Shown: positions 58,844-63,727, counted from the first letter of the stretch. The stretch is DNA of 64,000 nucleotides from Sulfuricurvum sp. (GCF_028713855.1 NZ_JAQTNN010000016.1:215-64214), one strand, 5' to 3'. Numbers and translations are program-made. Notes: generated by a model not told the origin, from the letters alone.

Positions 58844-59341
58844 TTAGCGGAAATTTTCAAATACGAGAGGAGCATCCCACTCAAGCGATTTAATGTGAGC
58901 CATAATCTTTTGAAGCTCATCAATCTGTTTGGATTTCACACGGATGTAATCACCCTCAATCGCCGCGCTTGCTTTTGTTTTGAGATTTTTAATCTCTGCC
59001 ATAATCTTTTTGGCTTCTTTGGACTCGATGCTATCCACGATTTTATAGGTCGCTTTTCGTGCTCCCCCGCTTGCATCCTCGGTTTTTAATTCTTCGAGTG
59101 CTTTGGAAGAGAGCCCTCGTTTAATAAGTCGTGCAATGACAATATCTTTGAGAGCATCGAGTTTGTTATCGCTTGAAGCGAGGAGGATAAGCTGTTTCTC
59201 TTTTTCACGGTAGTTGATTTCGTAGGTAATCCCTTTAAAATCATAACGACCGATTGCCTCTTTTTCAGCTTGGGCAATCGCATCTTTGAATGCTTGGAGA
59301 TCAATTTTTGCGGAGATATCGAGAGAGTGTTCTGATGCCAT
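58844..59341 (-). CDS. yajQ: YajQ family nucleotide-binding protein
   Basis: EHSLDISAKID, RYDFKG, IEGDYIRVKSK..DELQ, FENFR. Confidence 0.93.
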   Translation of the reverse strand: MASEHSLDISAKIDLQAFKDAIAQAEKEAIGRYDFKGITYEINYREKEKQLILLASSDNKLDALKDIVIARLIKRGLSSKALEELKTEDASGGARKATYKIVDSIESKEAKKIMAEIKNLKTKASAAIEGDYIRVKSKQIDELQKIMAHIKSLEWDAPLVFENFR

Positions 59342-59404: not shown

Positions 59405-60112
59405 TTAAAACATCGGGCTTCCAAAATCCAATCCGCCGCCAAACGCCATTGCCGCATTGGGATCCTGATATCCCATCATCGCACTTTTCATCCGCAACAT
59501 CGTTATGTCTTGTTTAGGGGCAATATTTTGCGGACAAACAGGGACACATTCGCCGCAGAGGGTACAGTCCCAGATTCCGTTTGTTTGGATCGCCGCTATC
59601 TTCGTATCACTTCCATTTTCCCGAACATCATTTACATAACGCCACACACGGGTAAGGGCAAAGGGACCGATAAAATCAGGATTCACCGCATATACGGGAC
59701 AGGCGCTGTAACACGACGTACATAGGATACAGTCGCTTTGCGTCTCAATACGGTTCGCATCTTCTTCGCGTACTTTTCCTTCGTGTGAGCCTTCGCTCCA
59801 CGCAGAAGCGACACGATTAAAATGCTCAACCATACCGGAATCAACCACCAGATCCCGAATTACACGGGCATTACGGATCGGCTCTACACAATCGCCATCG
59901 GAGGGTTTATACTCACACATCAACTGCTCACGCCCATTCACACGAACGGCACAGCTTCCGCATACGCCGCTTCGGCAACCATGAGAATAGGTCAAAGTAG
60001 GATCAATTTTGGTTTTGATATGATTAAGCACGGTGAGTAAAGTAACGTTATCTAACTCGACGTTATAACTTTGTGCTTCATTATCAGTACTGCGTAAAAT
60101 TTTAATTTCCAT
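59405..60112 (-). CDS. frdB: Fumarate reductase/succinate dehydrogenase Fe-S subunit
   Basis: CRSGVCGSC..C, CILCTSCYSACP, CTLCGECVPVCP; start set at ATG 60112 (MEIKIL). Confidence 0.9.
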   Translation of the reverse strand: MEIKILRSTDNEAQSYNVELDNVTLLTVLNHIKTKIDPTLTYSHGCRSGVCGSCAVRVNGREQLMCEYKPSDGDCVEPIRNARVIRDLVVDSGMVEHFNRVASAWSEGSHEGKVREEDANRIETQSDCILCTSCYSACPVYAVNPDFIGPFALTRVWRYVNDVRENGSDTKIAAIQTNGIWDCTLCGECVPVCPQNIAPKQDITMLRMKSAMMGYQDPNAAMAFGGGLDFGSPMF

Positions 60113-60222
60113 CAGTCGCACCACTCCCGCTCTTCATCTTCTTCATCCTCATAAGGGTCTTCACAGCATCCCTCCTGATTCGAATCTTTATCGTCATCCC
60201 AAACTTTATCATCACCCAACAT
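60112..60222 (-). CDS. Unannotated 36-aa acidic Cys-containing peptide
   Basis: MLGDDKVWDDDKDSNQEGCCEDPYEDEEDEEREWCD; ATG 2 nt after the frdA stop; TGA overlaps the frdB ATG. Confidence 0.65.
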   Translation of the reverse strand: MLGDDKVWDDDKDSNQEGCCEDPYEDEEDEEREWCD

Positions 60223-60224
60223 TT

Positions 60225-61826
60225 TTATTGTATAAAATCCGCGCATAGCACTCCATCCTCTTTCCATGTAATTGTGTGGGCTCCGAACATTCGGTCATTA
60301 CGCGCAGGTGCATCGATACGGTAATGCGCCCCTCGGCTCTCGACGCGGCTGATCGCACACACAACGATAATTTCGGCCAACTCGATCTTATTTCCAAACT
60401 CGATAAATTCGACCAAATTGGTATTGCATATTTTCGACTTATCGCGAGGTCCCATAAACGGCAACTCTTTTTGCATCTGACGGATCGCCCCAAGCACTGC
60501 CTTCAGCCCCATATCATCTCGAACTAATCCCACATTGTTATAGAAGATATTAGCGAGCATCTCCTGTTTTTGGTAAAAATCAATCTGATTGGTGAAATAC
60601 ATCACCCCACGAACAAAATTGGTATCTTTAGCTAACTGTGAGCTTTCACCTACAGGAGCAGAGGATTTATCTGCATATTCGGTCGCGTTTTTTCCGCACT
60701 CACGTCCATAAACGACAAGTTCCAAAAGTGAATTACCCCCAAGTCGGTTCGCACCGTGGGTTTTATGATTGGCACACTCACCAACGGCAAACAAGCCACT
60801 CACACTACTCATACATGCGGCATTGACTTCGATTCCCCCCATGCTGTAATGGGCTGAGGGTTTAATCGGGATAAGTTCATGTACCGGATCAATACCCTCA
60901 TAGATTTTTGCGAGTTTGCGTTCTTGAGGCAGTTCATGATCGATAAACTCTTCCCCTAGATGGCGGATATCGAGATAGACCGCACCGCTTTTATTTATCT
61001 CATCATGGATAGCACGGGCAACGATATCACGGGAAGCGAGCTCATCGGTAAAGCGATCCCCCTGCGCATCCACCAAATACCCGCCTGCACCACGAGCACT
61101 CTCAGAAATCAAAATCGAGGAGCCTTTCAGCGCCGTAGGGTGAAACTGGATAAACTCCATATCGGCAAGTTTTGCCCCCGCACGTACCGCTGCCGCCAAA
61201 CCATCACCGGTTGCCTGTACGGAGTTTGTTGAATGTTTACCATAAAGTGCGCCGTATCCGCCCGTCGCAAGTATCACAGCATTGGCACGTATCTCTTCGA
61301 CCTCACCCGTTTCGATATGTAAAAACGTCGCTCCTAACACACGGTTAGCAGTTTCGTCTACAATCAGATTGAGCAAAAATCGCTCGTTTTTAAATTCTAT
61401 CCCTGCTTTGAGGCATTGGTCGTAAAGGGTATGAAGGAGTTTAAGCCCCGTATAGTCTTGCGCATAACAAGCACGAGGCGCACTCGCTCCGCCTAAACGC
61501 CGACGGGCGATTTGCCCTTCTTCGTCACGACTGAAAGGTAAGCCGATACGGTTGCACCACTCTATCGCTTCGGGTGCTTTTTCACACATAAATGCGATCC
61601 GTTTTTCATCTCCCAATCCAGCTGAGGATTTGAGAGTATCAGCAATATGGCTTTCGATCGTATCATTAGAACTCAAAACTGCGTTCATCCCTCCCTGAGC
61701 CATCGAGGTTTGTGAACGTGTGGGAAGTGTTTTGGAAGCGACAATAACCTCTGCCCCGCTCTCACGAGCTGACAATGCGCTCACCAATCCTGCACCGCCG
61801 CTGCCGATAATCAATACTTTCGCCAT
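60225..61826 (-). CDS. frdA: Fumarate reductase/succinate dehydrogenase flavoprotein subunit
   Basis: GSGGAG, TRSQTSMAQGG, QFHPT, SESARGAGG, ASRDIVAR, HYSMGG, NRLGGNSL, ESRGAHYR; start set at MAKVLI. Confidence 0.9.
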   Translation of the reverse strand: MAKVLIIGSGGAGLVSALSARESGAEVIVASKTLPTRSQTSMAQGGMNAVLSSNDTIESHIADTLKSSAGLGDEKRIAFMCEKAPEAIEWCNRIGLPFSRDEEGQIARRRLGGASAPRACYAQDYTGLKLLHTLYDQCLKAGIEFKNERFLLNLIVDETANRVLGATFLHIETGEVEEIRANAVILATGGYGALYGKHSTNSVQATGDGLAAAVRAGAKLADMEFIQFHPTALKGSSILISESARGAGGYLVDAQGDRFTDELASRDIVARAIHDEINKSGAVYLDIRHLGEEFIDHELPQERKLAKIYEGIDPVHELIPIKPSAHYSMGGIEVNAACMSSVSGLFAVGECANHKTHGANRLGGNSLLELVVYGRECGKNATEYADKSSAPVGESSQLAKDTNFVRGVMYFTNQIDFYQKQEMLANIFYNNVGLVRDDMGLKAVLGAIRQMQKELPFMGPRDKSKICNTNLVEFIEFGNKIELAEIIVVCAISRVESRGAHYRIDAPARNDRMFGAHTITWKEDGVLCADFIQ

Positions 61827-61914: not shown

Positions 61915-62820
61915 ATGCAAACTTTATTCTCTATTATGGGTATCTACCTCTTTATCGCTGTCGGTTTCGGTGCCAAATGGACCTTCAAAGAAAAGATCGA
62001 TGATCGTACAATTACCTTGCTCAGTGTCTATTTTTTACAGATTTTTCTCACCTTTTGGGGTTTGCTTAAACGTCCTATCGATACCGAACTCCTCTTTGCC
62101 CCCTCGCTTTATCTGGGAATTTCCCTTTTGGCTTTGTTACTGATGATTCCTCTGGCTAAAATTCTTTTTCATAATCCCAAAGAGCGTTCCATTGCTACCG
62201 TTGCCGCACTCATCGGCAATACGGGAAATCTCGGTATTCCTTTGGGTATCGCATTGTTTGGAGAGATGAGTGTCCCTTATCTCACCCTCATCAATCTCGT
62301 CAATGTCTTCGTCGTTTACACTATCGGGGTTTTCTACTATTCACGTGGAGAGTTCAGTGTGCGCGATTCGCTCATAAATATTCTCAAACTTCCCGTACTC
62401 TGGGCAGCGATGGTGGCAATCGCATTGAATCTCATCGGATATGTTCCCTCTCCTGCTGTGGATAAAACACTGATGATGGGGGCATATGCCTCGATGACGA
62501 TGCAGTTGGTACTCTTTGGGATTTATCTCTATGGTATCAAGTTGGGAGAAATCAATCTGCGGCTCACCACTTGGGTAAACGGAACAAAATTTCTTCTCAT
62601 ACCGCTGATCGCATTTGTTGTGTTAGGAATGGTGGAGATGGATAGTACTGTGAAAGGGATTTTATTTTTAGAGCTGATCGTTCCACTGGCGGTGGCTAAC
62701 GTGAACCTCGCCTCACTCTATAACTGCTCCCCTCGTACTGTTACAGTAGAGGTATTTACGACTTCCGTCGTATTTTTGGGAATTGCACTCGTATTACCTA
62801 CGCTGTTACAAATGTTTTAA
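61915..62820 (+). CDS. AEC (auxin efflux carrier) family transporter
   Basis: About 10 TMs, GNTGNLGIPL, KFLLIPL, PLAVANV. Confidence 0.88.
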   Translation: MQTLFSIMGIYLFIAVGFGAKWTFKEKIDDRTITLLSVYFLQIFLTFWGLLKRPIDTELLFAPSLYLGISLLALLLMIPLAKILFHNPKERSIATVAALIGNTGNLGIPLGIALFGEMSVPYLTLINLVNVFVVYTIGVFYYSRGEFSVRDSLINILKLPVLWAAMVAIALNLIGYVPSPAVDKTLMMGAYASMTMQLVLFGIYLYGIKLGEINLRLTTWVNGTKFLLIPLIAFVVLGMVEMDSTVKGILFLELIVPLAVANVNLASLYNCSPRTVTVEVFTTSVVFLGIALVLPTLLQMF

Positions 62821-63727
62821 TATTATCGATTGTAGCAGCAATCAATCGCTCACGCGCTTCACGAGACGTCCATGCGATATGGGGAGTGATATAAAGACGT
62901 TCAGGATGTTTTACCGCTAACAGTGGGTGTGGTGTTTTCATCGGTTCTTTCACCAATACATCCAGTCCGACAAAAATCGGTTTCACATCGATGATCACCG
63001 AAAGGGCATCCTCATCGACAATTCCGCCGCGTCCGAGATTGAGCAATACCGCACCGTCTTTCATCTGCAACAGTTCAGAATGAGAGATCAGATTTTCGGT
63101 CAATGGATTGAGTGGTGCATGAATGGAAATAATGTCACTATTCTCGATTAGACGGCTGAGGGTCGTTTTCTCAAAATCGCTGTTCTCATTTTTTCCCGAG
63201 GTCGAGTAATAACAGACATTTGCACCGAAAGCTGACGCGATTTTTGCCACATTGCGGCCGATTTCACCCAGTCCGATAACTCCCCATGTCTTACCGCGCA
63301 ATTCGCTGAATGAGGGGCCGATATGGGCAAATACCGCTTCACGCTGCCACTCGCCGCTTTTAACGTATTCGTCATAGTATCGGCTGTGACCCATCAGGTA
63401 AAACAACATCGAAAATGTATGTTGAACAACGGCATCGGTCGAATAACCTGCCACATTTTTGACGGTAATCCCGCGACGTGCCGCCGAGTCGTGATCGATG
63501 TTATTCATCCCTGTCGCCGCAATACAGATGAGTTTGAGATTTGGTGCCGATTCCATCACGGCATCGTTAATCACCACTTTGTTCGTAACAATCACCTCTG
63601 CATCACGTACACGCTCCGCTGTTTCATCAGCGGATGTCGTCTGATGGACAATAACCTCGCCTAAGGTATCAAACCCTGCTAACGTGGTGTCACCATACGT
63701 TAGTGCATCAAGTATTACGATATTCAT
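62798..63727 (-). CDS. D-2-hydroxyacid dehydrogenase (glycerate dehydrogenase-like)
   Basis: [42 protein letters not shown]. Confidence 0.92.

Follow-up and report, generated by a model that had tools for sequence, protein, structure and literature searches.

Among described systems, the small disordered assembly factors of complex II come nearest in concept to the gene presented here. The structures of human SDHA with SDHAF4 show the latter as a disordered assembly factor that holds the SDHB site until assembly, and its strictly conserved C-terminal Asp-Phe binds His407 and Arg451 of the active site, the Asp being described as a "dicarboxylate mimetic" (PMC10784507). Our subject is a micro-gene located between frdA and frdB, the genes for the two subunits of a fumarate reductase (Frd), in Sulfuricurvum sp. 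(GCF_028713855.1, NZ_JAQTNN010000016.1:215-64214). The whole stretch analysed, hereafter the window, is 64,000 nucleotides (nt) long; coordinates are positions in it, and frdA, the micro-gene and frdB all lie on its minus strand. According to PMC4674564, which cites Sievert et al. 2008, the two-subunit Frd of this clade is cytoplasmic and serves the reductive tricarboxylic acid (rTCA) cycle, and no electron donor is named for it there. Like SDHAF4 (also Sdh8, DUF1674), the product of the micro-gene is small, appears disordered, offers acidic residues for contact and is tied to a flavoprotein of the SdhA/FrdA family. It belongs to a new, uncharacterised microprotein family, of which our literature searches found no description.

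The open reading frame (ORF) had first been noticed as a frame of 36 codons, and it fills the gap between the two genes exactly. After the TAA of frdA come AA and then an ATG at 60222..60220, while the TGA of the micro-ORF at 60114..60112 shares its A with the ATG of frdB (TGATG). The coordinates and both junctions given in the preliminary description of the window were confirmed, and so was the composition stated there: 18 of the 36 residues are Asp or Glu, two are Trp, and of the three Cys two form a CC pair. The neighbours had also been named correctly. FrdA carries the Pfam domains FAD_binding_2 and Succ_DH_flav_C, FrdB carries Fer2_3 and Fer4, and both Pfam and NCBIfam assign them to the SdhA/FrdA flavoproteins and the SdhB/FrdB iron-sulfur proteins, respectively.

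The conservation of the frame was examined by searching 61 related genomes and by a FrdB-alignment scan of species-representative genomes, which together gave 110 loci and placed the window in Sulfuricurvum (Sulfurimonadaceae, Campylobacterales). The named set plus the window comprised 81 frdA-frdB junctions, 74 of them usable. The frame is conserved in relatives: it was present in 58 of the 74 junctions (57 species loci and the window), distributed over 49 of the 51 Sulfuricurvum-level junctions, window included, and nine other Sulfurimonadaceae whose FrdB is 59-65% identical. The ratio of nonsynonymous to synonymous differences (pN/pS), pooled by the Nei-Gojobori method over 55 same-length pairs in the part of the gene not overlapping frdA, was 0.18 in the frame, whereas the two alternative frames gave 2.14 and 0.87. 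Among the coupled loci, 18 distinct frdA-to-frdB spacer lengths, from 52 to 145 nt, were counted, all of them 1 mod 3, and at none of these lengths was the frame interrupted between its ATG within frdA and its stop at the start of frdB. The products range from 24 to 80 amino acids (aa). Codon usage at the C-terminal tip varied among the 58 loci while the residues did not: the first Glu (position -6) is GAG in 30 and GAA in 28, the Cys TGC in 17 and TGT in 41, and the Asp GAC in 40 and GAT in 18; the basic residue is Arg written as CGG, AGA, AGG, CGA or CGC, or Lys written as AAA. The stop is TGA in 44 loci, TAA in nine and TAG in five. Considering the conservation of the frame and the purifying selection on it in 58 of 74 usable junctions, this is far more than chance would give, and on these sequence grounds we hold it practically certain that the micro-gene is real. 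That its product works with FrdAB is highly probable. Since the micro-gene starts inside the end of frdA, and its stop overlaps the start of frdB or precedes it by 11-25 nt, the three proteins FrdA, microprotein and FrdB would normally be made together, except where a repeat element has been inserted.

The start of the gene had to be moved. The preliminary description had placed it at ATG 60222, a codon that encodes Met in three junctions only, those of the window and its two nearest relatives (L031 and L033). In all Sulfuricurvum carriers the frame is open further back, to an ATG equivalent to 60246 in the window, which adds a start within frdA and gives a product of 44 aa. This ATG was found in 55 of the 56 carriers with the frdA Cys codon, preceded by the Leu codons TTA (29) or CTA (24) or the Val codon GTA (2). 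In non-carriers the preceding Leu codon was TTG (three times), CTC, CTT or TTA. The association of the ATG with the presence of the gene gave a Fisher p of 5e-6, a value to be read with the caveat that the species are related, and CTA and TTA together make up only 20% of the Leu codons of frdAB in the window. A Shine-Dalgarno (SD)-like stretch precedes this ATG, and the energy of its duplex with the anti-SD sequence was on average -9.6 kcal/mol in carriers versus a median of -3.6 in non-carriers. As both ATG and SD co-vary with the presence of the gene, the ribosome-binding site and start of the micro-gene are written into synonymous positions of frdA. Gene callers chose the same start in NCBI records, for example P0003, a 44-aa "hypothetical protein" of Sulfuricurvum sp. 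Two other solutions were discarded. A 51-aa product beginning at ATG 60267 was rejected, Leu or Val being found at that position in several relatives. A fusion to FrdA by -1 frameshifting at GAT TTT ATA was also considered; with a conserved ATG and SD in place there is no need for it, the frame relation differs in the outgroups, where the micro-gene follows the frdA stop in the same frame (L083, L095) or begins in an ATGA overlap (L111), and there is no two-site slippery heptamer at that place.

All 58 loci end in E-[R/K]-E-[W/Y]-C-D followed by the stop. The universal part of the microprotein is restricted to this C-terminal block, in which a run of Asp and Glu with interspersed Phe, Tyr or Trp leads into E-[R/K]-E-[W/Y]-C-D-COOH; the conserved stretch covers the last 10-16 residues of a protein that is 40-50% Asp plus Glu. 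In the 44-aa product of the window, Asp and Glu account for 18 residues and Lys and Arg for five. Deletions and transposon-like insertions that keep the frame are tolerated elsewhere, in the N-terminal and middle parts, and the outgroup members have an N-terminal motif of their own, MN(S/G)ERKT. The CC pair sits in a sub-motif, W-x-(E)GCCED-P, which is old, as it is shared by the distant L083, L101, L104 and L097, and which occurs in many Sulfuricurvum; nevertheless CC is missing in about half of the family, where one Cys alone is found, and the second Trp is likewise not conserved. Conservation of Cys and Trp with synonymous variation, named as a check in the preliminary description, holds for the Cys and the [W/Y] position of the tip and does not extend to CC and the second Trp. 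Covariation of the tip W/Y with FrdA columns yielded phylogenetic signal only. It is probably through the six residues of the tip that the microprotein acts on the enzyme. Short invariant ends on disordered acidic chains are also found in SSB (...DDDIPF-COOH) and in Hsp70 and Hsp90 (...EEVD-COOH), where recognition needs the free terminal carboxylate (that of the terminal Asp in EEVD) plus a hydrophobic residue. These are tails of large proteins that bind oligonucleotide/oligosaccharide-binding (OB)-fold partners or tetratricopeptide repeat (TPR) clamps, whereas the microprotein is essentially all tip and its partner is presumed to be FrdAB.

The variable part has been a repeated target of mobile sequences. 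At least eight distinct repeats, or elements resembling miniature inverted-repeat transposable elements (MITEs), are found in N-terminal or middle positions of the gene in various lineages (L040, L063, L068, L070, L072, L077, L087, L050 and L055; proteins P0050, P0070, P0089 and P0090), every one of them in frame and free of stops. Their translations include ...PFVVSLSNHE.TLR.AQ.ER..., ...SRLRGNDN..GLDPGIH... and ...SVIPDLIGDPSS..GFPI.LGMTG..., and with them the product reaches up to 80 aa, the C-terminal tip being kept every time. A second kind of insertion was observed in eight species, in which an element of 106-135 nt lies between the micro-gene stop and frdB, exactly at TGATG, and the intact gene and its tip are retained. 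In six of them (L050, L055, L066, L070, L075 and L079) it is a MITE-like element of 106-124 nt. At its end the final 12-14 nt of the micro-ORF (TGGTGTGAYTGATG) are nearly repeated, which recreates the start context of frdB and resembles a target-site duplication. The same genomes have further copies of the element, inserted in either orientation, and a related copy is found in the window at about 1294-1363. The other two, L064 and L080, carry a different element of 135 nt with its own GGAG at the same site. This shared old insertion is now 85% identical between them, and E-[R/K]-E-W-C-D has been kept despite different tip codons and stops. In L056 (= L024), an apparent insertion of 154 nt consists of N with a duplicate of the junction at its flanks, an artefact of assembly or scaffolding.

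A profile search of 5.8 billion proteins returned 93 further members of 29-80 aa, ending in EWCD (81) or EYCD (13), and the named ones are all called hypothetical. One distant member, P0087, is also encoded between frdA and frdB, with an ATGA overlap. An exhaustive search with a hidden Markov model over 1.84 billion cluster representatives gave 12 matches, all belonging to the same family. Against Pfam, NCBIfam and PDB profiles the micro-ORF had no match, even at E<=10.

The gene has also been lost. In the Sulfuricurvum L047 it is deleted and the TGA of frdA overlaps the ATG of frdB; in L048 it is truncated (...NEERGWCDR*); several other genera (Sulfurimonas sp. CS5 is one case) have a degenerate copy or none, and Sulfurimonas-type FrdAB, otherwise the same enzyme, is found without it. 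Because the gene is lost, truncated or absent in some lineages, the microprotein is accessory and not essential to the enzyme. Among the remaining loci, L097 has a 57-aa frame in which the acidic W-EGCCED-P part is preserved and the C-terminus reads ...DEDNG, not ...YCD, and only decayed remnants are seen in L105 and L088, the letters EWCD persisting in the latter behind stop codons; the three represent stages of divergence or loss of the micro-gene. At positions of high conservation the only changes unique to L047 are FrdB R80Q (window numbering, EPIRNARVIRDL) and FrdA V176A. Arginine 80 of FrdB is otherwise at least 97% conserved and is Gln in L047, the sole Sulfuricurvum with a deletion of the micro-gene. 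As a search for sites relaxed after gene loss, this was a single data point with too few changes to interpret.

The features of the locus are collected in Table 1. No membrane-anchor gene follows frdB, where the next gene is yajQ/DUF520, and a scan for promoters and terminators gave nothing informative. The 44-aa product has no hydrophobic segment and no CCG-domain or other Pfam match, so that the features of a complex II membrane anchor (FrdC/FrdD or SdhC/SdhD) or of a type-E SdhE with its CCG domain are absent from it. Outside the window, the same genome holds two more FrdB/SdhB-like frames, at C1:239752-240348 and C9:96507-97103, both 36% identical, lying in open frames of about 336 aa and having identical scores; it therefore has another complex II-type enzyme, apparently in two identical copies or on a duplicated contig.

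Table 1. Features of the frdA-frdB locus and its surroundings, in window coordinates.
Feature	Position	Strand	Remarks
yajQ/DUF520	58844..59341		next gene after frdB
frdB, iron-sulfur subunit	59405..60112	-	235 aa; ATG at 60112..60110
Microprotein gene, revised	60112..60246	-	44 aa, MRGFYTIKMLGDDKVWDDDKDSNQEGCCEDPYEDEEDEEREWCD, plus TGA; 22 nt shared with frdA, 1 nt with the frdB ATG
Frame as first read, 36 codons	60112..60222	-	MLGDDKVWDDDKDSNQEGCCEDPYEDEEDEEREWCD; part of the microprotein gene outside the frdA overlap
Codons of the C-terminal tip, E-R-E-W-C-D	60115..60132	-	GAG CGG GAG TGG TGC GAC; codon table from 58 loci; the 93 database homologues all end in EWCD or EYCD
Conserved start ATG	60244..60246	-	made from the A of a frdA Leu codon (CTA) and the TG of the next codon, Cys, in ...V-L-C-A-D-F
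Shine-Dalgarno-like sequence	60251..60260	-	GAGGATGGAG; in the purine-rich frdA codons K-E-D-G, 4-9 nt upstream of the micro-gene ATG
frdA, flavoprotein	60225..61826	-	533 aa from ATG 61826; TAA stop at 60227..60225; longest ORF begins at GTG 61877
Membrane transporter, auxin-efflux-carrier type (Mem_trans)	61915..62820	+	divergent, upstream of frdA
Candidate D-2-hydroxyacid dehydrogenase-like gene	62798..63727	-	by similarity to the neighbour in distant L083, where it is also upstream of frdA

A key aspect is what the tip would do. A product acting in trans is favoured because the tip is kept both in the outgroups, whose stop lies 11-25 nt before frdB, and in the eight species with an insertion at the junction, and since the gene is dispensable in two Sulfuricurvum lineages (L047 and L048) an accessory factor is to be preferred to a catalytic subunit. 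By analogy with SDHAF4 on SDHA, we tentatively propose, as a possibility and with limited confidence, that the microprotein is a disordered accessory factor whose C-terminal tip plugs the dicarboxylate pocket of FrdA. The polyanion would be made alongside FrdA and FrdB and serve FrdA in trans, in an accessory or assembly role. Its flexible chain would land on the enzyme, and the tip would enter the strongly basic dicarboxylate pocket with its His (of AHYSMGG) and Arg (of NRLGGNS). With two free carboxylates on adjacent carbons, the terminal Asp is an N-acyl-aminosuccinate and could mimic fumarate or succinate, while the aromatic residue and the Cys might pack over the flavin. In this position the tip may shield or gate the non-covalently bound flavin adenine dinucleotide (FAD) until FrdB docks, or while it does so, in an assembly role or as a gate of activity. 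The microprotein would then be a non-homologous functional analogue of SDHAF4.

The pocket of the enzyme is consistent with this proposal. The residues of the dicarboxylate site (QFHPT, ESAR, AHYSMGG and NRLGGNS) are retained in FrdA and are invariant across 52 aligned FrdA, the counterparts of SDHA His407 and Arg451 included. Both proteins thus share, on one side, a strictly conserved C-terminus with an Asp and an aromatic residue close to the free carboxylate and, on the other, an invariant His and Arg in the pocket of the partner. The C-terminus of SDHAF4, ...GDWERKGRCIDF, was verified against 8dyd_C. FrdA has Gln in the position of the His that carries covalent FAD (TRSQTSMAQGG; Q44 of the alignment, invariant), so that it cannot be flavinylated at a His there, unlike SDHA, the client of SDHAF4, which is covalently flavinylated. 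SdhE/SDHAF2 is another small accessory protein of SdhA/FrdA; it differs from the microprotein in that it folds into five helices, carries an RGxxE motif and promotes covalent attachment of FAD, and the microprotein showed neither a Pfam match to PF03937 (SdhE/SDHAF2) nor an RGxxE motif.

AlphaFold2 was run on single chains corresponding to natural same-frame read-through, namely FrdA-TAA-15 aa-microprotein of L083 and FrdA-TAG-KG-TAA-S-microprotein of L095. FrdA was modelled confidently (predicted template modelling scores, pTM, of 0.83 and 0.84). In the microprotein, the means of the predicted local distance difference test (pLDDT) over blocks of 10 residues were 35-53 in L083 and below 50 throughout in L095, so with pLDDT below 50 apart from short stretches it is predicted to be disordered.

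A number of observations weigh against the plug or fail to support it. In both AlphaFold2 chains the tip was left without a confident position (pLDDT 31-45); these runs, made without FAD and without a usable alignment for the peptide, lend the plug no support and do not contradict it. Profile searches found no homology to SDHAF4/DUF1674: a profile of 23 members gave 0 matches in the PDB at E<=10, the solved SDHAF4/DUF1674 members 8dyd_C and 2k5k_A included, and none of the 23 matched DUF1674 in Pfam at E<=10. The order of Asp and aromatic residue is different, D-F-COOH in SDHAF4 versus W/Y-C-D-COOH here, within C-termini that read GDWE[RK]KGxxIDF-COOH and E[RK]E[WY]CD-COOH, respectively. Unlike SDHAF4, the micro-gene lies between the genes of the A and B subunits and its product is far more acidic, and the plug itself is a proposal drawn from the analogy. 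The model leaves the universal Cys and the basic residue at -5 unexplained. FrdA and FrdB are both net acidic, with equal charge in carriers and non-carriers, and therefore offer no obvious complementary surface to the acidic run. Finally, tight coupling of stoichiometry is seen more with subunits than with chaperones. A more far-reaching form of the proposal, quite improbable at present, is that the microprotein is a convergent SDHAF4 counterpart that stays on the mature enzyme, either with its Cys-Asp-COOH tip as a thiol-sensitive gate (responding to redox state, sulfide or fumarate-succination) that switches the rTCA fumarate reductase, or as part of the route of electron input of two-subunit fumarate reductases.

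The foremost alternative, which must be considered doubtful, is a stoichiometric third subunit placed on FrdB or on the FrdA-FrdB interface, for example covering the face to which the anchor binds in quinol:fumarate reductases, with the polyanion as a docking handle for a basic electron donor. Coupling on both sides implies synthesis at about 1:1:1, and the operon has neither an anchor nor a donor gene, while the two-subunit Frd of the clade is thought to be cytoplasmic and its donor is not named in PMC4674564. Such a subunit is hard to reconcile with the loss or truncation in two Sulfuricurvum species, with its absence from Sulfurimonas-type FrdAB, and with the fact that the loss in L047 is accompanied by the single FrdB change R80Q. 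The preliminary description had spoken of a third micro-subunit. What stands of this is a real coding micro-gene, linked to frdAB and coupled on both sides, whose product is a candidate small partner; the specific roles offered for it found no support. On a ferredoxin-mimicking acidic docking peptide, one of these roles, the data argue neither way. Another was a purely mechanical translational coupler setting the A:B ratio. It was rejected because such a coupler does not need a conserved peptide, whereas selection acts here at the amino-acid level (pN/pS and an invariant hexapeptide) and the gene stays intact in the eight species in which 106-135 nt separate it from frdB.

A peptide acting in cis while still nascent is unlikely on balance. 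Intrinsic ribosome destabilisation (IRD) is exemplified by MgtL and arrest at termination by TnaC or SecM. Here, the early poly-Asp/Glu would destabilise the ribosome, or the tip would arrest termination, and the number of ribosomes reaching TGATG would be tuned so as to set FrdB:FrdA in response to Mg2+ or a metabolite. As with MgtL, TnaC and SecM, the ORF is very short and lies directly upstream of a cistron, it has a conserved stretch before the stop, and it is rich in Asp and Glu like IRD sequences. The conserved last 10-16 residues are shorter than the ribosomal exit tunnel, the N-terminus is free to vary in proteins of 24 to 80 aa, and in most species the stop overlaps or abuts the frdB start. 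Unlike those systems, the micro-gene lies between structural genes and is not a leader, and the motif and the open frame persist in the eight species where 106-135 nt before frdB uncouple them. Moreover, the stop codon varies among TGA, TAA and TAG, neither Pro nor any other known arrest signature is present, and a mature protein accounts better for selection on a free Asp at the C-terminus.

An acidic iron or metal chaperone that loads the three Fe-S clusters of FrdB, with an acidic surface of the frataxin or IscX type and Cys as ligands, seems to us quite unlikely. The hyper-acidic composition, the location directly before frdB, and the W-x-(E)GCCED-P motif and penultimate Cys common to distant members (L083, L101, L104 and L097) would suit it. 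About half of the family, however, has a single Cys and no CC, and the Pfam and PDB profile searches gave no similarity to known Fe-S scaffolds or carriers. The preliminary description had suggested a metal/Fe-S chaperone; a metal or Fe-S site built on CC cannot be the core function, because the pair is not conserved.

Less probable still is a redox swinging arm, in which the penultimate Cys on a flexible tail would pass reducing equivalents or sulfur at the enzyme. The model is DsrC/TusE, whose flexible C-terminal arm with an invariant penultimate Cys reaches the active site of its partner. In the microprotein too the penultimate Cys is invariant on a tail predicted to be disordered; the host is a sulfur oxidiser, and TfrAB-type thiol:fumarate reductases are among the closer NCBIfam matches of FrdA and FrdB. 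DsrC, in contrast, is folded, has about 110 aa and a different partner enzyme, and carries another conserved Cys 10 residues before the penultimate one, whereas the penultimate Cys alone is conserved here, FrdB has no CCG/Hdr-like thiol-oxidising domain, and the microprotein gave no Pfam match to PF04358 (DsrC/TusE).

A chance ORF, a purine-rich spacer or a non-coding RNA element can be given next to no weight: the sequence is GA-rich and holds the ribosome-binding region of frdB, but this is contradicted by the low pN/pS in one frame only, the synonymous pattern, the frame kept through indels and insertions and the hidden ATG and SD, and an RNA element was dropped since no Rfam family matched the micro-gene region and its fold was no better than shuffled (z = -0.22).

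Taken together, most Sulfuricurvum and several other Sulfurimonadaceae encode an overlooked third product in the frd operon. It accompanies the anchor-less two-subunit fumarate reductases that, according to PMC4674564, are assumed to run the rTCA cycle in sulfur-oxidising Campylobacterota. The locus shows cleanly how a gene start, ATG and SD, is accommodated in synonymous positions of the gene before it, and how a microprotein can absorb MITE insertions that keep its frame. The sharply defined tip E-[R/K]-E-[W/Y]-C-D-COOH makes its function easily testable, the homologue of S. kujiense having 26 aa (MRGFYTMNEDIEDDFDDEENEREWCD). If the plug model is true, bacteria would have arrived independently at the SDHAF4 principle, with a C-terminal Asp mimicking the dicarboxylate.

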